A stretch of 60,846 nucleotides of DNA from Actinomycetes bacterium (GCA_029263075.1 JAJCYE010000034.1:1-60846), one strand, 5' to 3'. Positions 4,894 to 47,243 are shown, numbered from the stretch's first letter. The notes: generated by a model not told the origin, from the sequence alone. Numbers and translations: made by a program.

Positions 4894-5564
4894 CCGGTTT
4901 CGACGGTCTCCGAGGGTCCCAGGTCCAGGCGGAACGGCGGGTAGTCGTCGGTCATAAGCAGCGCGTAGGACCACACCCGGTAGACCCATCGGTTCATCCC
5001 CAGGTTCAGGTTGAACAGGGTTTCCGGGTACCGCCCGGTAAACAGCAAGGCGATAGCTGCGATGAACGCCAGCAGGCCTATCAAGCCCGGGTACGTCAGG
5101 TTCAGCGAAGTGTCGCCCGCAGCCACTTCGTACGAGAACCCTACGAAAAAGGCGACGATGAGGTAGTGCGGGATCGCCAGCAGCCAGGCTTTGACAAGCA
5201 CCAGGCCCCGGGACAACTTCTCCGGGTATTCGACGTTCAGTCGCGCCGGGTAGTCCGGGTCGTCTTCCAAGGAGAACGGCGGGTACCGGTCGGTCCCCAG
5301 CACCTCAAACGCGTAGAACGAAACTCTCCAGCCCCACCGCATGACCCCTACGTTGTAGTCGAAGAGGGCCCGCGGGTACCTGCCGGTAAAAAGGATGGCA
5401 AACCAGGCGGCGATCGAAGCCAGCACGGCACCTATCGCCAGGACGATCAGCACGAATACGTGGGGTAGGGCAAGAAACCACTTCACCAGCCACTTCCACC
5501 GAGACAAACCTTCGTCCAGGTGGCCTTCGATCGAAACCGGATACTTGCCGGGGCTAAGCGACAT
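4890..5564 (-). CDS. DUF4389 domain membrane protein
   Basis: Two repeats of LSRxxxLVKWxLAxPH...LFTGRYP...RWxxRV...TDxYPPF. Confidence 0.9.
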   Translation of the reverse strand: MSLSPGKYPVSIEGHLDEGLSRWKWLVKWFLALPHVFVLIVLAIGAVLASIAAWFAILFTGRYPRALFDYNVGVMRWGWRVSFYAFEVLGTDRYPPFSLEDDPDYPARLNVEYPEKLSRGLVLVKAWLLAIPHYLIVAFFVGFSYEVAAGDTSLNLTYPGLIGLLAFIAAIALLFTGRYPETLFNLNLGMNRWVYRVWSYALLMTDDYPPFRLDLGPSETVETG

Positions 5565-5666
5565 CTGACCTCCCTCTTTGGGACCTGGACCTGTCGGGCG
5601 ACGAGGCTACTTACACTGTAAACCTCCCGATGGGCCCTGTCACGAACATCCTGCCGCCGAACCCGC

Positions 5667-5698
5667 TTGACCTTGGAGTCGGCTCCAAGGTGTACGCT
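5667..5698 (+). promoter_or_regulatory. MerR/ZntR-type promoter-operator with 20-bp spacer
   Basis: TTGACC (5667-5672), 20-bp spacer, TACGCT (5693-5698); dyad ACCTTGGAG-tcgg-CTCCAAGGT at 5670-5691. Confidence 0.85.
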
Positions 5699-5705
5699 CC
5701 TGACT

Positions 5706-6185
5706 ATGGGACTGAAGGTATCGCAGGTGGCCAAGAAAACGGGGATCTCCCCCGATGCAATTCGCTACTACGAGGAGTTGGGGCTGCTGCCCGCGGCCGA
5801 GCGGACGGCGTCCGGATACCGGCAGTTCGGCGAAGAGACGGTGAAGCGGATCGGATTTATCAAGGACGCCCAGAGCCTGGGTCTTCGTCTCGATGAGATC
5901 GGCGAACTGCTCAAGATTCAAGACGACGGGGCTTGTCCCTGTGGCCACACCAAGCTGCTCCTCGAGCGCAAGCTGGAACAGGTGAACCGGGAGCTAGAAG
6001 TCCTCACCGGCCTGAAGAGGCAGCTTGAGCGCCTCAGCGCCCAGGAATGTTATTCGGACCCAGACACCCCGGTCTGGCCGTGCGAGATCGAGCTGAAGAG
6101 AGGGGGTGAAACCATGACCGAACCCGACTGCCCCTGCGGCTGCACCTGCGGAAGCAACGATGGACCGTGCACCTGCGGCTGCTAG
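5706..6185 (+). CDS. Heavy-metal-responsive MerR family regulator with Cys-rich C-terminal tail
   Basis: LKVSQVAKKTGISPDAIRYYEELGLL...RTASGYRQF...IKDAQSLGLRLDEI; ligands ACPCG, ECY, WPC; tail DCPCGCTCG...CTCGC. ATG lies 7 nt after the -10. Confidence 0.92.
   Translation: MGLKVSQVAKKTGISPDAIRYYEELGLLPAAERTASGYRQFGEETVKRIGFIKDAQSLGLRLDEIGELLKIQDDGACPCGHTKLLLERKLEQVNRELEVLTGLKRQLERLSAQECYSDPDTPVWPCEIELKRGGETMTEPDCPCGCTCGSNDGPCTCGC
6114..6185 (+). CDS. Putative nested metallothionein-like peptide MTEPDCPCGCTCGSNDGPCTCGC (in frame with merR)
   Basis: In-frame ATG preceded by AGAGAGGGGGTGA-aacc, a near-consensus SD; 7 Cys in 23 aa, arranged as CxCxCxC and CxCxC. Confidence 0.55.
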   Translation: MTEPDCPCGCTCGSNDGPCTCGC

Positions 6186-11184: not shown

Positions 11185-12582
11185 CTACAGGTTGATGCGG
11201 GCCACCACGCCTTCCTCGTTGCCCCCGGATGCTGCATCGGGACCCATCCACCCCGCCACGGTCGCCCGGGACCCGTCCTCATCGAGCGCAATGGAGAAGA
11301 ATGAGTCGGTCTGGCCTCCCAGGTCGATCCGCAGAATGCCACCCCGGCCGAAGGTCTCGTCCAGGTCACCGTCCTCCGTGAGGAGCACCAGCATGCCGTT
11401 CATGTCCGACTCGGTTGGCTTGCCGCTGCCGGCGATGAGAATCCCCCCGTCCTCCAGCACCACCAGGTCGCGGCCCCGGTCGTCCTGCCCCGCAATATCG
11501 ATGCGGACCAACCCGTCCTCGCCAAACTCCCTGTCCCACTCACCGTCGGACGTGAACCTGGCTGCAATGAGGTCCACCTTCTCCCCTTCGGCCGCCCGTC
11601 CGTACCCGGTGATGATGAAGTCTTCTCCCTGGAGGCCGACCTCGTAGGCTTCGGCGACGGCAGGCAACATTTCGGCCGTGGCAACACCGCCGGTGCCGAA
11701 GTCGTCCACCAGTTCGCCCCGGTCGTCGAGCTTGAACAGGACCGGCGAGATCGGTCCATCACCCACTCCCGAGTAGCCGCTCACCACTACTGCGCCGTCC
11801 TCCAACTCAACCGCCTGGCGCGGAGACTCGTTGCCGTCCTTGAGATCCATCACGAACAGCCCATCGGTGCCGAATGAAGTATCCCTATCGCCGTCGGCGG
11901 TCAGCCTGAGAACAGCAAAATCCCTGTCGGTTTCGTCTGGGCCGTCGTGAAGCTTCGCCCCGACCAGCACCAGCTTGTCGTCCCCCAAAACGGTCATGCC
12001 GAACATGGTGTCGCCCACGAAGTTGTCCCCCACCGCCCGGCCGTCGCCCAGGTTGAAGCGGGCGATCCCGCCTTCGCCGAAGGTGGCGTCCAGCGTGCCG
12101 TCCGGCTTGATCCGGACCGCCGCAATGTCGGTGTCCCGGCCGGCTTCCCCGGCGGCACCCGGGTCGTGTTCGATGGGTCCGGCCAGGACCACCGAGCCGT
12201 CCGACTGCACGCCGACCGCGCTCGCGCGCTCCCCGGTCCCGCCGCCGGCGGCAACGTTGACGCTGGTAAATCCGGTCCCCGCAAATCCCGTATCCAGATC
12301 TCCGCTCTCGTCGAACCGCGCTACAGCCATGGACTGGTCCCCGGCCGCCGTGACAAACCCGGCGGCGTAACTGCCGCCTTCAGTAGCCACAACCGAGACG
12401 AAGCGGTCCGCCTCCGCCGACATCGACACCCGGGTGAATCCCCCGAGTCCGAACGACGGATCCAGTGCCCTGACCGGCACGGCGGACGCCTTGTCATCGG
12501 TGCTCGCAGTCTGCGCACACCCGCCGGTAACTCCCAAAGCCAGGACCGTCAACAGTCCCAAACCACGCCTGCTCCCAATCAT
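11185..12582 (-). CDS. Secreted lipoprotein with delta-60 (DUF5122-like) beta-propeller repeats
   Basis: Signal peptide ending TGGC; seven (L/R/V/W)DxxF(G/A)xxG repeats: LDPSFG, LDTGFA, LDATFG, RDTSFG, VDDFG, WDREFG, LDETFG. Confidence 0.85.
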   Translation of the reverse strand: MIGSRRGLGLLTVLALGVTGGCAQTASTDDKASAVPVRALDPSFGLGGFTRVSMSAEADRFVSVVATEGGSYAAGFVTAAGDQSMAVARFDESGDLDTGFAGTGFTSVNVAAGGGTGERASAVGVQSDGSVVLAGPIEHDPGAAGEAGRDTDIAAVRIKPDGTLDATFGEGGIARFNLGDGRAVGDNFVGDTMFGMTVLGDDKLVLVGAKLHDGPDETDRDFAVLRLTADGDRDTSFGTDGLFVMDLKDGNESPRQAVELEDGAVVVSGYSGVGDGPISPVLFKLDDRGELVDDFGTGGVATAEMLPAVAEAYEVGLQGEDFIITGYGRAAEGEKVDLIAARFTSDGEWDREFGEDGLVRIDIAGQDDRGRDLVVLEDGGILIAGSGKPTESDMNGMLVLLTEDGDLDETFGRGGILRIDLGGQTDSFFSIALDEDGSRATVAGWMGPDAASGGNEEGVVARINL

Positions 12583-12605
12583 CTACAAATCCCTCCGCCA
12601 AAGTA

Positions 12606-12687
12606 TTAGGTGAGACACATCTTCTGTTGTAGCCTCCCTGCCCTCAGATATTAGGCAGCCCTAATATAGAAGGTAAGTCTCAACATA
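12606..12687. promoter_or_regulatory. Cluster of IdeR/DtxR-like iron boxes
   Basis: TTAGGTGAGACACATCTTC (12606-12624), ATATTAGG-cagc-CCTAATAT (12648-12667) and GAAGGTAAGTCTCAACATA (12669-12687) versus consensus TWAGGTWAGSCTWACCTWA; about 12-14/19 each by hand. Confidence 0.55.
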
Positions 12688-12734
12688 ACAAGGCGACCCC
12701 CGCCGGGGGAGCCCGGAGTTGTTAGCCTTGCCGG

Positions 12735-13565
12735 ATGCGAGTTGCGGTTGTCGGACACATCGAGTGGATCGACTTCATCCGGGTAGCCCGCATGCCTCGC
12801 CCCGGGGAGATAGTTCATGCGGAACAAGCGTGGGCCGATGTGGGAGGCGGTGGCGCCGTCTCCGCGGTCCAACTGGCCAGACTGGCGGGCTCGGCCGACT
12901 TCTACACCACCATCGGGGACGACGAACTCGGCCGGCGCGCCCGGCATCAACTCGTCGAGATGGGCCTTTCGGTCCACAGCGCCGTAAAAAACAACGCCCA
13001 ACGGCGAGCCATTACCTACATCGACGACTCGGGCGACCGGTCCATCACGGTCCTGGGGATCAGGTCTTCGCCGTCCTCGTCCGATCCCCTCCCCTGGGCG
13101 GAACTTGAGAGAACAGATGCGGTCTACCTGACTGCAGGTGACCCCGAGGCGATTCGGCTGGCCCGCAAGGCCCGGGTCCTGGTGGCGACCTCCCGGATCC
13201 TGCCTCTGCTCCAAGACGCCGGGGTGGAACTGGACGCCGTGGTGGGAAGCAAGCTGGACCCGGCCGAGCAGTACAGGGAAGGGGACCTGATCCGCACCCC
13301 CGGTCTGGTCGTGCGCACCGCAGGCGCCGCAGGGGGGACCTATCAGGCTGCCGGCGGGTCCGAGACGCCATACCCGGCCACCCGGCTGCCCGGACCGGTT
13401 GTCGATACCTACGGCTGCGGGGACAGTTTTGCCGCCGGGCTGACCTTCGGGCTGGGCCTGGGTCTACCCCACGAAGAGGCTTTAACTCTTGCCGCCAGGT
13501 GCGGAGCTGCCGCGGCGACCGGCCGGGGACCCTACCAAACTCAGCTCACCGCTTCGGATCTTTGA
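12735..13565 (+). CDS. PfkB family carbohydrate kinase (ribokinase-like)
   Basis: GGGGAV..VQLARL, GDDELG, VVDTYGCGDSFAAG. Confidence 0.92.
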   Translation: MRVAVVGHIEWIDFIRVARMPRPGEIVHAEQAWADVGGGGAVSAVQLARLAGSADFYTTIGDDELGRRARHQLVEMGLSVHSAVKNNAQRRAITYIDDSGDRSITVLGIRSSPSSSDPLPWAELERTDAVYLTAGDPEAIRLARKARVLVATSRILPLLQDAGVELDAVVGSKLDPAEQYREGDLIRTPGLVVRTAGAAGGTYQAAGGSETPYPATRLPGPVVDTYGCGDSFAAGLTFGLGLGLPHEEALTLAARCGAAAATGRGPYQTQLTASDL

Positions 13566-13611
13566 ACCGGAGAGCGACCCAACCATGGGCCGGCCGCCTA
13601 CGGGCGAATGC

Positions 13612-15270
13612 CTAGATCCAGCCGCATTTGAGGCCCCCGCAATCGAACATCGGCATCCACATCAGGCGGCGCCAAAGTTCGTAATCGATGCTGATCGCCG
13701 AGAGGATCGGGAAAAAGATCACCGTCATCACCAGCACTCCGACCACCAGATAGCCCAAGACCAGCCTCCTCGGAACCTTGCCCCTCCGGCGGATCCGGTT
13801 CAGGCCCGCAGCCAGTCCGATCAACAGGAAGGGGACGGCGGGCGTCATGTAAAAAAAGAACAGGGGCCTGCTGACCGCCAACCAGGGCAGGTACTGGGCG
13901 GCGAACGCCGCCAAGACGAACGACTCGGGGCGCCAACTGCGGAGGCTACGGACCGCCAGCCAGATCAGAGCGACGATCGCCGCGTACCAGACGGCCGGGT
14001 TGGCCATTCCTATGATCTCGACGGAGTTGCCGTACGCCCCATCGTAGTAGTACGACACCGGCCGCAGGATGAACAGCCAGGTCCACGCCTTCGACTGGTA
14101 CGGGTGGGTGGCCGTGAGATGCAGGTGATAGTCGGCCACCCGGTCGTGGAGGTCGGCGAAGTTGAGGGCCAGCCCGGGAACACCGTTCAGGCACTCGCCC
14201 TCCACCAGCCCGTAAAAGCCGGCGCTGAAGTAGCGCTCGGCGGACTGCGCAGGAACCGTGTAGGCGCACGGCCGGGAGTTTTCGCGCACGAACCACTCGG
14301 TGTAGGAGAAGAGATACACGACGAGGGGGACCAGACCAAAGACGAGCGCCGTAACAAGAGCGTCCTTTGCCAGCGCCGAGCGTCGGGGCCCGGTATCCGG
14401 GGCTTGCGGCCGGGAGCCCTCCTCGCCCGGGGCGGACTCCTCGCCCAGCTCGCCCGGGGCGGACTCCTCGCCCAGTGCGGACTCCTCCGCCGGCGAGACT
14501 CGCGTTTGCCTGCGGCGGATCCGCCAGAGGCCTACCGTCCAGCCGAAGCCGAGGAGGGCGGCGGCGGCAAGGGCGTAGACCGCAGACCACTTGACCGATA
14601 GCGCAAGGCCAAAGGCCACGCCGGCCGCCAGGCGGTTAACCAAACTACGGACCGGAGGCGGGCCGGGTTCACCGGAGTCAAGGTGCGCCCTGACGGCCAC
14701 CACCTTCTCCCGATCGATAGCAAGGAACAAGAACCCGAGGGCGATAAAAAAGGCCAGGAAGATGTCCAGCATGGCAATCCGGCTCTGGACGAACAGCAAG
14801 AAGTCCGTAGCAACCAGAAAACCGGCGGTCATTGAGATCCACCGGTTCTTGAACAGCCGCTGCGCCAGCAGGTAGGTCACAAGAACCAGCCCGACTCCAC
14901 ACACCACTGCGCTTATCCGCCAACCCATTGAGTTGTTGCCGAAAACCTTGATCCCGGCGGCGATCAGCCACTTGCCCAAAGGTGGGTGGACATAACTTTG
15001 TTCGGTGGTGCCGGTCAGCCCGCAGGTGTCCGGGAGATTGCCCAGGTAAAGGCAGGCGTCCTTGGCGTAGTAGGTCTCGTCGAAGACCAACTCCTCAGGC
15101 TCAGCCAGGCGCACGTATCGGATGATCGCGGCGAAAGCGAGGAGGATCACCACGGCCCAACGCGCCTCCCACCAGTGGTGGCGGCCACGTTTGTTGTTAC
15201 CTTTGGTCCCCTCCAACAAGCCCGGCCCCGACTTCAGTGGGTCCGATTCCTTGGTGGGGGGCGACGTCAT
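13612..15270 (-). CDS. pmt: Polyprenol-phosphate-mannose protein O-mannosyltransferase
   Basis: VFDETYYAKDA, VHPPLGKWLIA, GWR, SRIAMLDIF, KWS, HPYQS.AWTW, RPLFFFY. Start could be 15297. Confidence 0.92.
   Translation of the reverse strand: MTSPPTKESDPLKSGPGLLEGTKGNNKRGRHHWWEARWAVVILLAFAAIIRYVRLAEPEELVFDETYYAKDACLYLGNLPDTCGLTGTTEQSYVHPPLGKWLIAAGIKVFGNNSMGWRISAVVCGVGLVLVTYLLAQRLFKNRWISMTAGFLVATDFLLFVQSRIAMLDIFLAFFIALGFLFLAIDREKVVAVRAHLDSGEPGPPPVRSLVNRLAAGVAFGLALSVKWSAVYALAAAALLGFGWTVGLWRIRRRQTRVSPAEESALGEESAPGELGEESAPGEEGSRPQAPDTGPRRSALAKDALVTALVFGLVPLVVYLFSYTEWFVRENSRPCAYTVPAQSAERYFSAGFYGLVEGECLNGVPGLALNFADLHDRVADYHLHLTATHPYQSKAWTWLFILRPVSYYYDGAYGNSVEIIGMANPAVWYAAIVALIWLAVRSLRSWRPESFVLAAFAAQYLPWLAVSRPLFFFYMTPAVPFLLIGLAAGLNRIRRRGKVPRRLVLGYLVVGVLVMTVIFFPILSAISIDYELWRRLMWMPMFDCGGLKCGWI
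14422..14475. repeat. 27-bp perfect tandem duplication inside pmt (LGEESAPGE x2)
   Basis: ctcgcccggggcggactcctcgcccag at 14422-14448 and 14449-14475, plus a degenerate third copy. Confidence 0.85.
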
Positions 15271-38439: not shown

Positions 38440-39768
38440 GTGATTCTGAATACGACCCCTGCCCCCACCACGAGGAGCCCCTCATACCTACGTCTCCTTC
38501 TGGTCGTCCTGGGCACGGCGACTTTCTTTGAGGGTTTCGACACCGCGATCAGCGCGATCGTCCTCAAAGACCTGGCCGAGTCGTTCAATATCCCCCTCGA
38601 TGAGACCGCTCAAATCACGGGGCCCCTCATACCCATCGGCCTCGGCGCCTTCGGGGCGCTGGCCGTCACCATGCTCGGCGACCGCATCGGCCGGCGGCCC
38701 CTACTGGTGGGTACGACCTTCCTCTACGCAATATTCACCGGCCTGACTGCCACTTCGCAGACTCTCACCATGTTCGTGGTCTTCCAGTTCTTCGCCCGCA
38801 CCTTCCTGCTGGCGGAGTACGCCACGGCGATCACGATGGTCACCGAAGAGTTCCCCGCCGAGCGAAGAGGCCGGGCCCTGGGAACATTGACGGCGCTGGG
38901 GGCGCTGGGGCTCCCCATAGTTGCGGTCCTGCACCTGCTGGTAAAGGACACCGCCCTCGGCTGGCGCATCCTCTACCTCGTAGGCCTGATCCCGCTGGTT
39001 GTCGTCGGCTTCTTGAGGCTGAAGCTGAAAGAAACGGAACGATGGACAACGGCCAAGGCCGAGGGGTCCACGCTCAATCACCACAAGATCCGCCAACTGC
39101 TTCATCAGGCCGACCGTTCGATCATCTGGAAGGTCGGGGCGCTCTACTTCTTCTCTCACTTCGCCCTATTGGGTGCGGTGACCTGGTGGCCGTTTTATGC
39201 GGGCGTCCACCTGGATTACAGCGACGCCACCATTACCCTGCTGCTGGGGGTCGCCTACCCGCTGGGGGTGACCGGCTACTACCTGGCCGGCCGGCTCGCC
39301 GACCGATACGGCCGGAGAAGAACCGGCACCCTGTTCCTATTCGTCGGCATGGTTTTCGGGATAGCGGTGTTTCAGATCTCGGACGCCACCTTGATGTTCC
39401 CGGCTCTGGTGCTTGCGGTCTTCTTCGGATTCGGGATGAACCCCATCCTGGCGGCGATAGCCTCCGAACTGTTCCCCACCGCCCTCAGGGCCACCGCGGT
39501 CGCCTTCGTACGGTCGATCTTCGGGACCATCGGCGGGATCGCCGGACCCATCACGGTGGGAGTCCTGGCCGGTGCCAGCGCCGCCGAAAGGTTCCCCTCG
39601 ATGCCCCTGCTCGGAAATATGGGGGACGTGGTGGCGATGGTCGCTCTGATGAACATCCCGGCGGCGATCATGCTCTGGAAGCTGCCCGAGACCGCGGGAA
39701 CCGAACTGGAGGACATAGGGACCGGTTCAACCAAACCCGGCGACGAACTACAGCCCGACGCCTCCTAG
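38440..39768 (+). CDS. MFS transporter
   Basis: GDRIGRR, EEFPAERRG, ADRYGRR, ELFPT.LRA, LPET. Confidence 0.93.
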   Translation: MILNTTPAPTTRSPSYLRLLLVVLGTATFFEGFDTAISAIVLKDLAESFNIPLDETAQITGPLIPIGLGAFGALAVTMLGDRIGRRPLLVGTTFLYAIFTGLTATSQTLTMFVVFQFFARTFLLAEYATAITMVTEEFPAERRGRALGTLTALGALGLPIVAVLHLLVKDTALGWRILYLVGLIPLVVVGFLRLKLKETERWTTAKAEGSTLNHHKIRQLLHQADRSIIWKVGALYFFSHFALLGAVTWWPFYAGVHLDYSDATITLLLGVAYPLGVTGYYLAGRLADRYGRRRTGTLFLFVGMVFGIAVFQISDATLMFPALVLAVFFGFGMNPILAAIASELFPTALRATAVAFVRSIFGTIGGIAGPITVGVLAGASAAERFPSMPLLGNMGDVVAMVALMNIPAAIMLWKLPETAGTELEDIGTGSTKPGDELQPDAS

Positions 39769-39784
39769 GTAGCGACGATCCGGG

Positions 39785-41797
39785 TCAGTGGGAAGCCAGG
39801 GCCACCGAACCCCACGACAGCAAGAACAGAGCGGTCATCATGACCAGTGGGATCGTCGTCCACAACACCTCGATTGCCAGCACCCGCAACCGCCCGGGTG
39901 CCTCCTCGGGCCTGCGGTAGCCGATCACGCCAACCAGGATAGCGGCCGAGAAGCCGACGAAGATGGTACCGGCGGCCACCAGCACAACCTGGTAGATCGA
40001 CTCGATGGCCGGGACGTTCAGCAGGACGTCCGCCGCCAGCGCAACGAACACCACCACCAGATACATGATCGAAAAGTGAAACAGGCTCATCGCCTGCTTG
40101 CCGTCCGGGTTCTTGCGGAGCCGCAGGGAGTAGAACACGAAGGCCAGGCCCATGACGCTGGCGGACGCCAGGTACAAGACTCCTAGCTGGGCCACCGGGT
40201 ACATCAGCAGGCTCACGGCAAACAGCACCACCGAGTAAAGGACAATCTGGCGCGTCGTCTCCTGAACGCCCCGGACCACCGGAAGCATCGGCACGCCTGC
40301 CGCCTTGTAGTCATCCGAATACCTCAGCGCCAGCGCCCAAAAGTGCGGGGGCGTCCAGTAGAAGATGATTGCGAACAGGACCCAGGCCGGACGGCCGACA
40401 TCGCCGGTGACCGCCGCCCACCCGATCAACGCGGGAGCGGCCCCCGCCGCCCCTCCGATGACGATGTTGGACGGCGTGTATCTCTTGAGCCCGATCGTGT
40501 AGACAAAGACGTAAAAAAGGATGGCGGCCAGCGACCACCAGGCCGCAGGCATGTTGATTGTCAACGCCATGAAGATGAAGCTGACAACTCCCAGGATGAC
40601 CCCGAACCTGAGGGCGTTGGCCGGGGTTACATCGTGACTCGGCAGGGGCCTGATCGACGTCCGCTGCATCTTTTCGTCGATGTCACGATCCAGATAGCAG
40701 TTGATGCAGTTGGCCGATCCGGCAGCCATGCTTCCACCGACGAGGGTCGCCAGCACCAGCCAAGGCGCCGGCCATCCCCGCTGGGCGACGATCATCGCAG
40801 GGACCGTGGTAATCAGCAGCAACTCGATAATCCGGGGTTTGGTGAGCATGAAGTAGGCCTTGATCCGGCCGCCTCCGCCACCCTTGGCCCCGGCACCCTC
40901 CGCTTCCCTCCCACCCGCAGGTGCGGCCACCCCGCCCTTGCGGTAGGCGAGGATACTCAACGACACCAGCGCCACCCACAACAACTCACCGGTAAGGACG
41001 TGGCCCACAATGGTCCACGGCGCCGAACCCGACAGGACATTGAACCCGCCCAGAAGCACCTGCACCAACCAGAGCGCAAACGCGCCGTGACCGAGCATGA
41101 GCAACGTGCGGTCCTTGGGGTCCCGCTTGGTGATGCGGTAAGCGAGCAGACCGATGGACACACCCAACAACGCGGCAACCAGCCGGTGGGTGTAGTGCAA
41201 CAGGGGTTTGGCGCCGTCGGGCGGTAGGAGCGAGCCGTTCATCAACGGCCAATCGGAAAACACTTCCGCTCCGGCCCGCTGCTGGACCACCGAAGCACCC
41301 ACCATCAGGACGATGAACGCCGCTGCCGTGGTCCACGCGGCCAGCCGGGACACCCGATCCCACCCTCCCCCGCGGGAGTGGAAGCTGTTCACCGTGGCGG
41401 TGGCCAGCAGCCCCACCAGAGTCAGCGACAAGAAGAAGTGAAGGACCACCGTGTCGGCGTGAAGCTCGTCGAGCACCACCTGGCGGCCGACGCCGGCCTG
41501 GATGATGACCGCCACCAGAGCGAGCAGCGAAGGCCAGAACACCGCGGGCCTCGTCCGCTGCTTCAGCCAGGCGACTACCGCCAGGGCCAGGACCAGGAAG
41601 CCCACGATCGACGCCACCAATCGGTGGCTGTACTCGATGATGGCCGTCTTCTCCAACGGGGGAATCCAATTACCGTGGCAACGGGGCCAGTCCGGGCAGC
41701 CGAGCCCCGATCCGGAGGCGCGCACCACAGCGCCGACCATTACCAGGATCATGGCCATCACGGTAGTGGCCGATGCGAGCTTCTGAAAACGGGTCAT
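39785..41797 (-). CDS. ctaB: Fused heme A synthase (CtaA) - heme O synthase (CtaB) with extra C-terminal TM hairpin
   Basis: CtaA: SGLGCPDWPRC, EYSHR, HRL; CtaB: LTKPRI, DRDIDEKMQRT.RPLP, NIVIGG, WTPPHFWAL, DY.AAGVPM. Confidence 0.93.
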   Translation of the reverse strand: MTRFQKLASATTVMAMILVMVGAVVRASGSGLGCPDWPRCHGNWIPPLEKTAIIEYSHRLVASIVGFLVLALAVVAWLKQRTRPAVFWPSLLALVAVIIQAGVGRQVVLDELHADTVVLHFFLSLTLVGLLATATVNSFHSRGGGWDRVSRLAAWTTAAAFIVLMVGASVVQQRAGAEVFSDWPLMNGSLLPPDGAKPLLHYTHRLVAALLGVSIGLLAYRITKRDPKDRTLLMLGHGAFALWLVQVLLGGFNVLSGSAPWTIVGHVLTGELLWVALVSLSILAYRKGGVAAPAGGREAEGAGAKGGGGGRIKAYFMLTKPRIIELLLITTVPAMIVAQRGWPAPWLVLATLVGGSMAAGSANCINCYLDRDIDEKMQRTSIRPLPSHDVTPANALRFGVILGVVSFIFMALTINMPAAWWSLAAILFYVFVYTIGLKRYTPSNIVIGGAAGAAPALIGWAAVTGDVGRPAWVLFAIIFYWTPPHFWALALRYSDDYKAAGVPMLPVVRGVQETTRQIVLYSVVLFAVSLLMYPVAQLGVLYLASASVMGLAFVFYSLRLRKNPDGKQAMSLFHFSIMYLVVVFVALAADVLLNVPAIESIYQVVLVAAGTIFVGFSAAILVGVIGYRRPEEAPGRLRVLAIEVLWTTIPLVMMTALFLLSWGSVALASH

Positions 41798-41828: not shown

Positions 41829-42467
41829 TCAATGTTCTCCAGCGGGAACTTCGCCGCCCGACGACTCACCCTCTGCCGCAATCACTTTCCCGTTCATCGT
41901 GGGGTGAACGTCGCACTGAAAGTAGTACTCGCCGGCGGCGATGGGATCTACCTTCTCCTCGACTTCTTTGGGGCCGGTGATGATGGCACCCCGGAACAAG
42001 GCGTTGGTGGAACCCGCTGCCTCCAGGATGGAAACGTTGTGGGGCTGGGCTTCTTTGTTGTCGAAGGCGATGATGAATTCTTTGTCCGCCGGGATAGAGA
42101 GTTCCGTCTGCTCGAAGGCCAGGTTATCGGCAACCAAGTCAACCTTCACAATCTCTTCGCCGTGGCCCTCCTCTTCGGGAAAGCTAACGACACCGGCAGC
42201 CGCAGCCCCACCCAAAACCAGCGGGACCACCGCGATGATCCCCAGGAACATCGCGAGGGGTTTCCCGGCGCTCGGTTTGGCTGCCATCACGCTGAATGCG
42301 ACAAGCAAGTTGATGGCCGTCATTATCGCTACCGAGGTGGCGATCTCTGCCGGTACGTTCAGCAGGATCTGGGACATGACCAACGCCAGGAACAGGACAA
42401 AGGCCAGTGCTCCCACCGGAATAAGGATGGGAAGGATCAGCCGGTCCCGCATCTTGTCGTCACTCAT
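41829..42467 (-). CDS. Membrane-anchored type-1 copper cupredoxin (plastocyanin/azurin-like)
   Basis: 3 TMs, then HNV...GEYYFQCDVHPTM.G (H, C, H, M ligands). Confidence 0.88.
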   Translation of the reverse strand: MSDDKMRDRLILPILIPVGALAFVLFLALVMSQILLNVPAEIATSVAIMTAINLLVAFSVMAAKPSAGKPLAMFLGIIAVVPLVLGGAAAAGVVSFPEEEGHGEEIVKVDLVADNLAFEQTELSIPADKEFIIAFDNKEAQPHNVSILEAAGSTNALFRGAIITGPKEVEEKVDPIAAGEYYFQCDVHPTMNGKVIAAEGESSGGEVPAGEH

Positions 42468-43342
42468 CGCGTCTCCACCTTGTTCAACTCCCTTTCGAGG
42501 TCTTGCCACTTTGTGGCATCCGGGGTACCCGACTCCTGCTGGGCGGCCCATTTGAAGAAAAGTACGGCAATTATCGTCCAAAGTAGCAGACCGCCGCCCA
42601 CCTTCATTATCAGGCCCGACACACCCTGATCGGCAACCGCGCTAAATCCCGAGATCAACCTGGGCGCTTCGGCGTACGACCGGTACAAAGGGTACTCGCC
42701 AAACGTAAGGAACGACGCCGGGACCGTGGGTACGATCGTCTGCCCGAACAGGTAGAGCATCTGGCCCGGCATCGATAGCCTCGGCAACTCGGGCATGGGA
42801 CTGAGGACCGGCCACCACATCAAGAGCGAGGTCGCTACCAGCAGGATGTGGGCGCCGAAGTGGAACGCCTCGTTGGAGGTGGTCTCGTTGACAAATCCCG
42901 GCCAGTGGGTGAACACCAAAAATACGTTGAAAATAATCAGCGCCGGAAGGGGCCTGGTAAGGCGGCGCATGATCGCCATCGCCCACCGGGGCCGAAGGAT
43001 CCGCCGGGCCAACCAGTCCGGGGTACCCATCAGGACCAGGGCCGGCGCGATCAGCGAAAACATAAGGTGCTGCAGCATGTGCATGCTGAACAGGTAGTTT
43101 TCGCTGATTTCGTGCATCGGCCAGTCGGCGCCGATCCAAAACACCAGGATTCCCGACACGAAATACCCGACCTGCGACTTGGTCGCCGCCGGTTCGCCGG
43201 GCGACACGTACCGAGGGCCCCAGAACTTTAAGGCTGCCCAGTACCAGGCCAGCACTGCGCCCATGATGAGCCAGACATCCAGGTGCGGCGCCCATAACCA
43301 GGGTCCGCCCACCTGTCCATGGGCCAGCAGGTCCGTCGCCAC
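42464..43342 (-). CDS. ctaG: caa3-type oxidase assembly protein
   Basis: YLFSMHMLQH, LMWWPV, DQ..SGLIMK. Confidence 0.9.
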   Translation of the reverse strand: MATDLLAHGQVGGPWLWAPHLDVWLIMGAVLAWYWAALKFWGPRYVSPGEPAATKSQVGYFVSGILVFWIGADWPMHEISENYLFSMHMLQHLMFSLIAPALVLMGTPDWLARRILRPRWAMAIMRRLTRPLPALIIFNVFLVFTHWPGFVNETTSNEAFHFGAHILLVATSLLMWWPVLSPMPELPRLSMPGQMLYLFGQTIVPTVPASFLTFGEYPLYRSYAEAPRLISGFSAVADQGVSGLIMKVGGGLLLWTIIAVLFFKWAAQQESGTPDATKWQDLERELNKVETR

Positions 43343-43354
43343 GAAAGGCCGCGT

Positions 43355-43687
43355 TTAGCTAGCTGCCCCGGCGAGGCGCTCGGCGAAGGTAAAGGTCCAC
43401 AGGACGACGCCGTAAATGGCCATAGCCAGGATGATCCCAAGGATAAAAAAGCGCCGGAAGATCTTCGAATCGAACTTCAGGTGCATGAAGTACCCGGCCA
43501 CCGCTACAAACTTGACGATCATCATGGCGCTAAGAATCGGCACGATCAAGTTCGTCAGCGAGTCGATGTAGACGACCACCACCTCCAACGCCGTGACGAT
43601 GCCCAGGAAAATGGCGATCTTTACGTATTGGAACTCGGATGGGTGATCGTGAGCGTGCTCTTCCAAAGAAGTCTCCGTTGTACTCAT
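43355..43687 (-). CDS. ctaF: Cytochrome c oxidase subunit IV
   Basis: LGIVTALEV, KF..V..YFMHLKFD. Confidence 0.9.
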   Translation of the reverse strand: MSTTETSLEEHAHDHPSEFQYVKIAIFLGIVTALEVVVVYIDSLTNLIVPILSAMMIVKFVAVAGYFMHLKFDSKIFRRFFILGIILAMAIYGVVLWTFTFAERLAGAAS

Positions 43688-44298
43688 GGGAACAGGTAAA
43701 CGACGGTGAAGATGACAATCCAGATGATGTCCACGAAGTGCCAGTACAGACCCACCATCTCGACCTTCTTAGCTCCCTCCGAGAACGGATCGAGCTTGCC
43801 CAACTTCGACAGCGTGTACATGGTCAGCAGCATCAGGATCCCGATGGCGACGTGGGTTCCGTGGAACCCGGTCAGGACGAAAAAGCTGGATCCGAAGGGG
43901 CTGGTCTGAAGCGTCAGGCCCTTGTGGACGAATTCGGTGAACTCGAAAAACTGCCCGCCGATGAAGCTGGCGCCCAGCAACGAAGTTGCCAGCAGCCAGA
44001 TCCTCAGCTTGCGATGGTCGCCCCGCTGAATGGCCGCGAGGGCCAGCACCATGGTCAGCGAACTCATCAACAGGACGAACGAGGACACAGAGGTGTAGGG
44101 AATGTCGTAGACATCGTGCCTGGTGGGCCCGGTGCCGGTTCGGTTCCGGTAAAGAAGGTGTGAGGCGATCAGTGCACCGAAGAACAGGCACTCCGATCCC
44201 AGGAAGGCCCACATCGCCAGCTTGACGTTGTCCAAACCGGTGTAAGTAGCATGCGGGTCGTGCTCCGCGTGGGTCTCCTCGACTGTGGCGTCGTGCAT
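43684..44298 (-). CDS. ctaE: Cytochrome c oxidase subunit III
   Basis: MWAFLGSECLFF, LTGFHGTHV, GLYWHFVD. Confidence 0.95.
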   Translation of the reverse strand: MHDATVEETHAEHDPHATYTGLDNVKLAMWAFLGSECLFFGALIASHLLYRNRTGTGPTRHDVYDIPYTSVSSFVLLMSSLTMVLALAAIQRGDHRKLRIWLLATSLLGASFIGGQFFEFTEFVHKGLTLQTSPFGSSFFVLTGFHGTHVAIGILMLLTMYTLSKLGKLDPFSEGAKKVEMVGLYWHFVDIIWIVIFTVVYLFP

Positions 44299-46185
44299 TT
44301 AGTGCTCCTCCGCCGTAGCCGGCTCTAGTACCCAACCGTAGAACCCCGCCAGGGTGATGACCGTTCCGACGATACCCAACGGCCACGAGTGCAGAATCAC
44401 CGCGAAACCGGCAACCGGCATCCCGATGGCAGCAACGAGCGGGAAGTAGGACGGCGACGGCATGTGGATGCCGTGGCCGGCGTCGTGTTCGGCGTCCTCC
44501 GAGTGCTCCTCCGAGCCACCCACGGGAACCGGGACCGGCCGGCCCTTCTTGTCCTCTTTGTACTTGCGGTGCCAGAAGTCATCGCGCTCGGTGACGGTGG
44601 GTATCACTGCAAAGTTGTATTCGGGGGGAGGCGACGGGATGGTCCACTCCAGCGTACGAGCGTCCCACGGGTCGTTCCCGGCGATCTCGCCCTTCCGCTT
44701 GCTCTTCACCCAGTTGTGCATGAAGACCAGGGTGGAGGCTGCAATCAGGAAGGCGCCCACCGTGGAGAGCATGTTCCACATTTCCCAGCCGAGGCCGGCC
44801 TGGTAGGTGTAGTAGCGACGGGGCATGCCCTTGAGGCCGAGGATGTGGAAAGGACCGAAGGTCATGTTGAAGCCGATGAGCATCATCCAAAAGTGGATCT
44901 TGCCCAAGCGCTCGTCCATCATTTTGCCGTAGATCTTCGGGAACCAGAAGTACAGACCACCGAACAGACCGATGATGGCGCCACCGAACAGCACGTAGTG
45001 GAAGTGGGCCACGATGTAGTAGGTGTCCTGCTGCTGGGCGTCGTGGGGGACAATCGAGTGCGTAACTCCCGACAGGCCACCGATGATGAACATGGCGATG
45101 AAGCCGATGGAAAACAACATGGGTGTCTTGAACTTCAGCGAACCGCCGGCCATGGTGGCCATCCAGTTGAAGATCTTCACCCCGGTCGGCACTGCGATGA
45201 ACATGGTGGAGACGGCGAACGCCGAGTTGGCGGCCGGACCCAGGCCCACGGTGAACATGTGGTGCGCCCACACGCCCCAACCCATAAAGCCGATGGCCGC
45301 TCCGGAGAACACCACGAAGCTGTAGCCGAACAGCGGCTTGCGGGAGAAGACCGGGAGGATCTCCGAGACAATTCCCATCGCCGGGAGGATCAGGATGTAC
45401 ACCTCGGGGTGCCCGAACAACCAGAACAGGTGTTGCCACAGGATCGGGTCACCGCCACCCGCCGGCGCAAAGAACAGGGCGCCGAAGGTGCGGTCGAAGG
45501 TCATGAAGAAAAGGGCGACCGCGATCACCGGCATGGCGAACAGGAGCAAGAAGTTGACGACCAGCGACATCCAGATGAACACCGGCATCTTCATCAGCTT
45601 CATGCCTGGCGCCCTCATGTTGAGGATGGTGGTGATGAAGTTGGCCGAAGCCACGATCGATGCGACACCCAGGATCTGCAGACCCAGCGCGTAAAAGTCG
45701 ATCCGGTGATCGCCGGGCAGGAAACCCGCCGAGCTCGACAGGGGGGCGTAACCGAACCAACCGCCGTCGGGTGCTCCACCGAAGAACCAACTCGAATAAA
45801 GGAACAGGCCGCCGAACAAAAAGACCCAATACGATAACGAGTTCAGTCTGGGAAAGGCCACATCTCGGGCCCCGATCATTAACGGGATGAAGTAGTTGAA
45901 GAAGGCCGCACCCATTGGCATGACCACCAGGAAAATCATGGTTACGCCGTGGGTGGTGAAAAGCTGGTTGTAGAGGTCGGCGCTGATCAGCTTGCCCTCA
46001 GGGGTAGCCAACTGAGCGCGGATCAGGAGGGCTTCCAAACCGCCGAGGATGAAGAACACAAAGGCGGTGTAGCCGTACATGATGCCGATTCGTTTGTGGT
46101 CGACCGTGGTTACCCAGCTCCAGATGCCGTGGCTGGCCTTGGGCCGGCGAAGGAACCATGGGGTCGGCGTAGTTACCATAGCCAT
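44299..46185 (-). CDS. ctaD: Cytochrome c oxidase subunit I (A1 type)
   Basis: DHKRIG, FGHPEVY, WAHHM, VAHFHYV, GMPRR; two extra C-terminal TMs. Confidence 0.97.
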   Translation of the reverse strand: MAMVTTPTPWFLRRPKASHGIWSWVTTVDHKRIGIMYGYTAFVFFILGGLEALLIRAQLATPEGKLISADLYNQLFTTHGVTMIFLVVMPMGAAFFNYFIPLMIGARDVAFPRLNSLSYWVFLFGGLFLYSSWFFGGAPDGGWFGYAPLSSSAGFLPGDHRIDFYALGLQILGVASIVASANFITTILNMRAPGMKLMKMPVFIWMSLVVNFLLLFAMPVIAVALFFMTFDRTFGALFFAPAGGGDPILWQHLFWLFGHPEVYILILPAMGIVSEILPVFSRKPLFGYSFVVFSGAAIGFMGWGVWAHHMFTVGLGPAANSAFAVSTMFIAVPTGVKIFNWMATMAGGSLKFKTPMLFSIGFIAMFIIGGLSGVTHSIVPHDAQQQDTYYIVAHFHYVLFGGAIIGLFGGLYFWFPKIYGKMMDERLGKIHFWMMLIGFNMTFGPFHILGLKGMPRRYYTYQAGLGWEMWNMLSTVGAFLIAASTLVFMHNWVKSKRKGEIAGNDPWDARTLEWTIPSPPPEYNFAVIPTVTERDDFWHRKYKEDKKGRPVPVPVGGSEEHSEDAEHDAGHGIHMPSPSYFPLVAAIGMPVAGFAVILHSWPLGIVGTVITLAGFYGWVLEPATAEEH

Positions 46186-46202: not shown

Positions 46203-47243
46203 TTATTTCAGGCTCAACAGGTAGGCGGTCAGATCGTCGATCTGCTCATCCGTCAGGTTCAGCTGCGGCATCTTTGAACCGGGCTTGAGCTCCGGAGGAT
46301 CGTTGAGCCACGCCTTCAAATTTTCTTCGTTCATCTCGAACATCGAGCCTGCAAACCGGGTGCGACTGCCCACGTGGGTGAGGTTCGGGCCGACAATGCC
46401 CGCCGCGTCGCTGCCTTGGACTGCGTGACAGGCGACACACATCTGGCCATCGGCGAAGACGCCGGTCATAAACAGGTCTTCACCTTCCTGTACCGACGCG
46501 TCGCTCGCTGCATCTTCCAGTTGATCGGCAACCCACTGGTCGAAGTCGGCCGGCTCGTGGGCAATGGCCTTGGCACGCATGTTGGCATGCGACAAACCGC
46601 AGTACTCCGCACACTGGCCCAGGTACTCGCCCGGCTTGGTTGCCTCAATGGTCATGTGGTTGATCCGGCCCGGAACCACGTCCTGCTTGCCGGCCAGCTT
46701 GGGAATCCAGTAGCTGTGGATGACATCAACCGACTTGAGAGTCAGGTAAACCGGACGGTCGGTGGGGATGTGCAGTTCGTTGGCGGTGACGACACCGTTG
46801 TCGTACTTGTACTCCCACCACCACTGGTGTCCGATGACTTCAACCTGGAGTGCATCCGCAGGCTCCCGGGCCTGGTCGAAGATCACCGGGACGGTCATGA
46901 ACGCGATGCCGGTGAGGATGACGGCCGGGATGGCGGTCCAGATCAACTCAAACTTGGTGTGTCCTTCGATCTGGCGGGGCGAACCATGGGCTTTGCCCTC
47001 ACGGTATTTGAAGAGGATGAAGATGAGGCCACCCTCCACCGCAATGAAGACGAAGGCGGCGATGCCGAAGGTCACGTCCCACAGGCGGTCGGCCTGAATG
47101 GCCCGGGGGCCCTCGGGGTACAGGTAGTTCATCGGGGCATCCGCCGAGATACACGCGCTTAGCAGCAGCGTGGAGGCGAGGGCCACCAAACGAACGACGT
47201 AATTAAGTTTGCTTCGAGCGCGTTTGCGCAGAGGTCGATCCAT
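46203..47243 (-). CDS. ctaC: Cytochrome c oxidase subunit II with fused cytochrome c (caa3)
   Basis: Lipobox LSAC, QWWW, DVIHS, CAEYCGLSHANM (CuA), CVACH...KPGSKMP (heme c). Confidence 0.96.
   Translation of the reverse strand: MDRPLRKRARSKLNYVVRLVALASTLLLSACISADAPMNYLYPEGPRAIQADRLWDVTFGIAAFVFIAVEGGLIFILFKYREGKAHGSPRQIEGHTKFELIWTAIPAVILTGIAFMTVPVIFDQAREPADALQVEVIGHQWWWEYKYDNGVVTANELHIPTDRPVYLTLKSVDVIHSYWIPKLAGKQDVVPGRINHMTIEATKPGEYLGQCAEYCGLSHANMRAKAIAHEPADFDQWVADQLEDAASDASVQEGEDLFMTGVFADGQMCVACHAVQGSDAAGIVGPNLTHVGSRTRFAGSMFEMNEENLKAWLNDPPELKPGSKMPQLNLTDEQIDDLTAYLLSLK

Follow-up and report, generated by a model that had tools for sequence, protein, structure and literature searches.

A subunit II-like transmembrane hairpin at the C-terminus of a CtaA-CtaB heme O/A synthase from an order of uncultured Actinomycetota

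The protein described here comes from a stretch of 60,846 nucleotides of an Actinomycetes bacterium (GCA_029263075.1, JAJCYE010000034.1:1-60846), referred to below as the window. Positions 39785..41797 of its minus strand encode a protein of 670 residues (plus stop) that, by its domain and fold matches, is a heme O/A synthase in which CtaA and CtaB are fused. The ~75 residues beyond the CtaB domain are a bona fide homologue of the transmembrane hairpin of oxidase subunit II (CoxII). It is highly probable that the tail is both homologous to subunit II and the product of a gene fusion; its role is a more tentative matter. The best overall explanation, to which we give a probability of roughly 0.4, is that the 5' piece of a coxII gene was captured by ctaAB, that selection has maintained it, and that it tethers the synthase to subunit I. 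In what follows, order and family (the latter coded f1, f2, f3, f8, f40 and f79) are coded taxon groupings of the genome search, G000 is the genome of the window, and E-values from genome searches are per genome.

Homology of the tail to subunit II

Pfam finds both synthase domains within the one polypeptide: COX15-CtaA, the heme A synthase, at residues 7-278 (40964..41779, minus strand like all features of the window given below; E 5.2e-37) and UbiA/CtaB, the heme O synthase, at residues 327-575 (40073..40819; E 1.1e-69), with a fast-evolving Gly/Ala-rich linker between them (residues 286-312; 40862..40942). The tail comprises helix 1 (residues 599-626; 39920..40003), homologous to the first transmembrane helix of CoxII, a basic loop reading YRRPEEAPGR... 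(residues 627-635; 39893..39919), and helix 2 (residues 636-668; 39794..39892), homologous to the second. Helix 2 carries EVLWTTIP (E643-P650; 39848..39871), an instance of ExxWTxxP, and the protein ends 20 residues past P650. In the window protein, Pfam detects no CuA cupredoxin domain (PF00116) after the hairpin and no Surf1 (PF02104) match at E<=10. Precomputed Pfam annotation of these fusion proteins consists of PF02628 and PF01040 only.

Evidence from the single tail is thin, and the resemblance is secure because pooled orthologous tails match subunit II. An initial annotation of the window had aligned the tail by eye with the CoxII of the same operon; BLASTP reproduces that alignment, weakly (E 2e-4; 14/69 identities, 20%), although the closest CoxII hairpins are found in other Actinomycetota. 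Likewise, the comparison with COX2_TM (PF02790) that it proposed for the last ~75 residues falls short with this tail alone (E 0.0045, 17.6-17.9 bits, under the cut-off of 22.8 bits). Of the orthologous tails, 10 of 14 match COX2_TM singly at E<=1 (best 1.5e-5), any other family being matched by three at most, and the comparisons at the level of profiles, given next, are decisive. These 14 full tails, all from the same order, form alignment A2 and are 31-85% identical to the tail of the window. Against the PDB, the A2 profile yields 12 matches at E<=1, all of them subunit II of cytochrome c or quinol oxidases of the heme-copper type, including those of R. sphaeroides (best, 1.6e-5), P. denitrificans, B. 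subtilis aa3-600 and T. thermophilus caa3. Against 1.84 billion representative proteins it yields 762 matches at E<=1e-3 and 58 at E<=1e-10, with E down to 3e-16, and PF02790 is above its cut-off in 145 of the best 150 of the 762 (75/78 and 70/72). Non-CoxII proteins among these 150 are two full fusions (P0146, P0200), two CtaB C-terminal fragments with the tail (P0145, P0254), and P0258.

A direct comparison by hhalign of A2 with an alignment of 19 actinobacterial CoxII (A5) gives a probability of 99.05% and an E-value of 2.2e-18 over 70 columns at 31% identity. Six positions are invariant across the A2 tails (F21, E51, W54, T55, P58, W70), and in our reading of the hhalign output the first five of them fall on invariant CoxII residues (F61, E95, W98, T99, P102). 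The E, W, T and P of ExxWTxxP, which in the window are E643, W646, T647 and P650, are thus invariant in 14/14 tails and 19/19 CoxII and mutually aligned; in the profile match, the Glu of the tail motif also aligns with that of SPLEIAWTIVP in R. sphaeroides subunit II. The initial claim that the fusion ends in a copy of the subunit II hairpin therefore agrees with profile, PDB, library and hhalign evidence alike. Its motif coordinates are exact, both here and in the operon's CoxII (ELIWTAIP, E99-P106; 46926-46949), and the conservation that it expected of ExxWTxIP is borne out, as ExxWTxxP, in 14 diverse full tails. Chance likeness of two hydrophobic helices could be argued from the sub-threshold Pfam score and the low identity to the operon's CoxII, but the library-wide E-values, the share of COX2_TM among the best matches, the hhalign probability and the colinear synteny described below refute it and leave it a negligible prospect.

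Some entries in the protein libraries deserve a separate remark. P0258 is a protein of 75 residues with little beyond a subunit II-like hairpin (LELTWWAIP) and no Pfam match at either E<=1e-5 or E<=0.001, and may represent a fragment or else a hairpin protein in its own right. Apparent cases of a C-terminal COX2_TM (P0143, P0168, P0169, P0172, P0174, P0188, P0204, P0177, P0250) were rejected as Arg-rich miscalled or frameshifted open reading frames (ORFs) around real CoxII. Public gene calls near high-GC actinobacterial coxII include long Arg-rich, apparently out-of-frame ORFs that embed the real CoxII hairpin and so mimic novel architectures.

Predicted topology and constraint

An AlphaFold2 monomer model built on a 26-row alignment (mean predicted local distance difference test score, pLDDT, 84.1; predicted template modeling score 0.68) has eight helices in CtaA, a linker with pLDDT <50 at residues 291-306, nine helices in CtaB, the last ending at residue 592, and then the two tail helices at 599-626 and 636-668. 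Block mean pLDDT is 85-90 for tail helix 1 and 73-77 for tail helix 2. Foldseek of the full model gives B. subtilis heme A synthase (6a2j) as top match, together with UbiA-family structures, and no match that covers the tail.

Both CtaA termini are cytoplasmic, enzymes of the UbiA family are built of nine helices, and the loops of membrane proteins obey the positive-inside rule. From the 8 + 9 preceding helices and this rule, the hairpin would run out-in-out, as in native subunit II, with the Arg-rich loop inside (four Arg in the loop, none in the flanks). In one genome of the order (G461; L048, 521-3025, minus strand; identical to P0146) the CtaA-CtaB-hairpin protein continues into a thioredoxin-like domain (WASWCGPC), for a total of 827-835 residues; the position of this domain after helix 2 fits a predicted periplasmic C-terminus there. 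In another, G464, a thioredoxin-like protein is encoded on its own, ~100 nt downstream of the tail (L064, 10413-10811).

Comparison of six genomes of the genus in 15 pairs gives ratios of nonsynonymous to synonymous substitution rates (dN/dS) of 0.126 for CtaA and 0.088 for CtaB, as against 0.411 for the linker; the tail has 0.151, with 0.148 for helix 1 and 0.128 for helix 2. The tail value is near those of the enzyme domains, which indicates that the tail is constrained as they are; it is thus probable that the tail has a function under selection.

Probable capture from a once-adjacent coxII gene

The tail is 35-43% identical to CoxII hairpins of other Actinomycetota families (E to 6.6e-11), against 20% to that of its own operon. 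Of 24 CoxII loci retrieved from other families in the phylum, 15 have a homologue of the CtaA-CtaB fusion upstream on the same strand; there, the fusion homologue ends at residue ~594 of the query and the CoxII hairpin matches query residues 598-663. The order in G293 (f8) and G235 (f40) is ctaAB, coxII with a C-terminal cupredoxin, coxI, coxIII, with ctaG on the opposite strand between ctaAB and coxII in G235. In G293 the ctaAB stop overlaps a candidate coxII ATG as ATGA (L061, 8802-8805). Such an overlap is characteristic of translational coupling, and it would take a small deletion there to fuse the two genes. The window protein is colinear with ctaAB followed by coxII, minus the CoxII signal peptide and lipobox (~45 residues) and everything after helix 2, and on this ground the tail is, very probably, a captured 5' piece of coxII. 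Its source looks like a different, once-adjacent coxII and not the one now in this operon, a point that the initial annotation overlooked.

The event can be envisioned as follows. An ancestral ctaAB and the 5' portion of the coxII next downstream would have become one gene, with the signal peptide and lipobox dropped and the CuA domain lost. The last CtaB helix, running from inside to outside, would have taken the topological place of the CoxII signal peptide, and purifying selection would then have maintained the hairpin in a single order of uncultured Actinomycetota. No remnants of a CuA domain are found downstream of the tail in the window or in loci L063-L066; in the window, a convergent MFS transporter gene ends at 39768, 16 nt from the fusion gene.

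A second A-type oxidase in G000 is closer to the f8 type than is the operon of the window. It lies on contig C133 (CoxII-CoxI at ~11600-14067, minus strand, L002; CoxIII-like match at 5513-5983), and its CoxI and CoxII are 56% and 41% identical to those of G293. Helix 2 of this CoxII reads E..YT..P, not E..WT..P. Orthologues of this f8-like CoxII are limited to 7 of the order's 27 genomes, and across the order there is no correlation between tail helix 2 and the second oxidase.

Distribution and repeated loss of helix 2

In the genomes and protein sets covered here, a single order of uncultured Actinomycetota has the hairpin-bearing fusion. A word-indexed search that covered 5.8 billion proteins, with residues 580-670 as query, returned 21 clusters, of which all named ones are metagenome-assembled genomes of Actinomycetota. 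Among 401 genomes sampled across the phylum, 67 gave a tail match; fused tails were found only in f1, the family of the window (4/4), and f2 (1/1), and the remaining matches inspected belong to real CoxII with a CuA motif, at whose N-terminus the hairpin stands. Among 113 genomes of the class, the CtaA-CtaB fusion is present in each of the 26 genomes that share the order with G000 (19 of f1, 6 of f79, 1 of f2). In f3, the class's other family, with a match in 81/86, ctaA and ctaB lie next to each other as two genes, and CtaB alignments stop near residue 590-605; two apparent exceptions with a tail (G460, G325) were set aside, since when read through they stop 3 and 18 residues past the anchor. 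No CtaB with a hairpin was found outside the order among the best 150 of the 762 library matches, and because only these were examined, independent fusions may exist elsewhere.

Within the order, 26 genomes are readable at this point, the fusion of G465 running off its contig. All 26 have retained helix 1. The whole hairpin is kept in 17, G000 included, and the other nine (all six of f79, and G473, G474 and G475 of f1) have helix 1 only, ending after an R(W/Y)RR-like stretch. A tree built from residues 148-594 with the f8 and f40 fusions as root, made by a quick search that leaves several nodes unresolved, shows full-hairpin forms as basal and requires three state changes, that is, at least two or three losses of helix 2. 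These losses of the motif-bearing helix were also missed by the initial annotation. Genomes flagged as unpublished underlie the tail states assigned to G336 and G148 (full hairpin; f2 is represented by G148 alone) and to G474 and G481 (only helix 1), and also the Surf1 results for G336, G148 and G481 given below, the synteny locus L020 (G088) and rows of alignments A2 and A4.

What the hairpin may do

Docking of the hairpin on subunit I is a plausible but tentative reading of this pattern, the likeliest of those considered here although less probable than not. The hairpin would retain an ancestral ability to pack on subunit I at the binding site of the subunit II helices, and would tether the cell's single heme O/A synthase (G000 has one copy of ctaAB) to unassembled subunit I before the real subunit II joins. 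Heme A would thus be made beside its insertion site, with the hairpin working alongside Surf1 and not in its stead. The farnesyl chain of heme a3 lies between subunits I and II, from which it has been argued that heme a insertion probably precedes subunit II binding (PMC5249081). If so, a synthase with subunit II helices of its own could sit at the open insertion site. A stronger version, close to the placeholder idea of the initial annotation, is that the hairpin acts as a subunit II decoy that fills the vacant site on new subunit I, hands over heme A at the farnesyl cleft, and is then displaced by the real subunit II; taken in full, this sequence of events seems to us rather unlikely.

Several observations weigh against a tether to subunit I. 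Helix 2 has been lost repeatedly, in 9/26 genomes, and is therefore dispensable in those lineages. Since the f8-like oxidase, the type from which the hairpin would have come, has CoxII orthologues in only 7/27 genomes, the tail would mostly face a CoxI only ~48% identical to its ancestral partner. The CoxII loop motif LPPQxHGN, of which P85, Q87 and G90 are invariant in A5, is not retained in the tails. The lower pLDDT of helix 2 in the model fits a partner-dependent helix and a loosely attached relic alike. For P. denitrificans, the same source reports "no clear indication" of a CtaA-oxidase association (PMC5249081). A complex prediction of CoxI (50-row alignment) with the tail (14 rows) counts neither for docking nor against it: it scored 0.00 in two runs, in which the controls were unfolded and the fold of the partner uncertain.

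The same observations can be read in favor of a domesticated relic, a frozen by-product of the ctaAB-coxII fusion that makes no contact with subunit I and serves the synthase only, through folding, stability, oligomerization or membrane placement of the C-terminus. The retention of helix 1 throughout the order and its confident modeling with the body of the enzyme, set beside the absence of helix 2 from a third or so of the genomes, suit this account, as do the missing loop motif and the scarcity of the ancestral partner oxidase. Yet it leaves unexplained why E, W, T and P of the second CoxII transmembrane helix are invariant in tails as little as 31-35% identical to that of the window, and why helix 2 has so low a dN/dS within the genus; we regard it as a real possibility, though on balance a doubtful one. 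The hairpin might instead anchor some other partner, such as Surf1, CtaG, the real CoxII or a TlpA-like thiol reductase, and so organize an oxidase maturation complex. The AhpC-TSA/Redoxin domain into which the G461 hairpin runs (P0146), the thioredoxin-like gene 3' of the tail in G464, 51% identical, and the co-occurrence of Surf1 with the full hairpin point in this direction, but the thioredoxin fusion is known from a single genome and the Surf1 pattern spans few independent lineages, kin not being independent, so that we think this improbable.

Surf1 itself bears on a further proposal of the initial annotation, that the tail replaces Surf1 as heme A chaperone. Surf1 is indeed absent from this operon, and four full-hairpin genomes (G461, G463, G464, G314; 89-95% complete) have no Surf1 match. 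However, a Surf1 gene (PF02104, E 1.6e-34, 120 bits), the only Surf1 match of G000, is on contig C139 of this very genome, which contradicts replacement here. All seven genomes of the window's genus have Surf1, and in the order it is found in 16 of 27 genomes, comprising 13/17 with the full hairpin, 2/9 with helix 1 only, and G465. The anticorrelation of hairpin and Surf1 that had been suggested as a survey is therefore not seen; the lineages are few and related, and no statistics are claimed for these counts. Replacement of Surf1 is accordingly very hard to credit. The C139 gene (24593-25228, plus strand; L004) lies apart from both oxidase loci, its open frame has a long N-terminal extension, and the next ORF after it is low-molecular-weight phosphatase-like.

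Operon context

The order's operon reads coxII-coxI-coxIII-coxIV-ctaG-cupredoxin-ctaAB, with ctaAB last. In the window, CoxII (46203..47243), of the caa3 type with COX2_TM, COX2 and cytochrome c domains, is followed by CoxI (44299..46185; 628 residues), the proposed docking partner, CoxIII (43684..44298), prokaryotic CoxIV (43355..43687) and the assembly factor Caa3_CtaG (42464..43342), the last two by Pfam match. An ORF for a membrane-anchored cupredoxin (41829..42581) lies directly upstream of ctaAB.

Two of these neighbors have features of their own. The COX1 domain of CoxI spans only residues 32-480 of its 628; several close homologues carry a precomputed match to PF12270 (actinobacterial subunit IV), which suggests a CoxI-subunit IV-like fusion in those sequences, and none is found at E<=0.001 in the CoxI of the window. 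The cupredoxin is homologous to the C-terminal cupredoxin fused to f8 and f40 CoxII (<=46% identity to L061 and L062), and some relatives have it as two tandem copies (L063, L064).

Relation to known systems and significance

Fusions of CtaA with CtaB have been published (PMC9145763 and PMC8239418), and the window protein has the same two domains in the same order as those that also occur in f8 and f40. Unlike the f8 and f40 proteins, which end at residue ~594, it adds the subunit II-like tail. With COX2_TM the tail shares ~70 homologous columns, two helices with a basic loop, ExxWTxxP in helix 2, the Phe of helix 1 and an SW after helix 2; it differs in being C-terminal, on a heme synthase, and not N-terminal, on subunit II, and, compared with actinobacterial CoxII, in being without signal peptide and lipobox, CuA cupredoxin domain and LPPQxHGN loop motif. 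We found no description of such a tail on CtaA-CtaB fusions in the literature as far as it was accessible, and supplementary files may list such architectures. What is new here is the module: derived from subunit II, under selection and not annotated before, it sits on a fusion enzyme that was already known.

Surf1/Shy1 offers one functional parallel, the step proposed for the tail being the same, delivery of heme a to subunit I before subunit II joins (PMC5249081). The two have no sequence relation, Surf1 is a separate gene in this genome, and the tail is without a periplasmic domain. Assembly of complex I provides a precedent for placeholders: according to PMC10897435, NDUFAF2 is a paralogue of the subunit NDUFA12, which replaces it in the mature enzyme. 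An assembly factor paralogous to a structural subunit and replaced by it is the logic proposed for the tail, which is a paralogue of the subunit II hairpin; complex and fold are different.

The route by which heme A passes from a membrane-bound synthase into subunit I is an unresolved question. If the hairpin does act as a subunit II decoy, it would constitute a built-in placeholder mechanism for cofactor insertion, undescribed for any heme-copper oxidase. The present analysis also flags a domain missed by current Pfam annotation of these proteins. Even if the hairpin is a relic, it would be a clean example of exaptation, in which the membrane anchor of a neighboring gene's product was captured by way of an overlapping stop and start and kept under selection.

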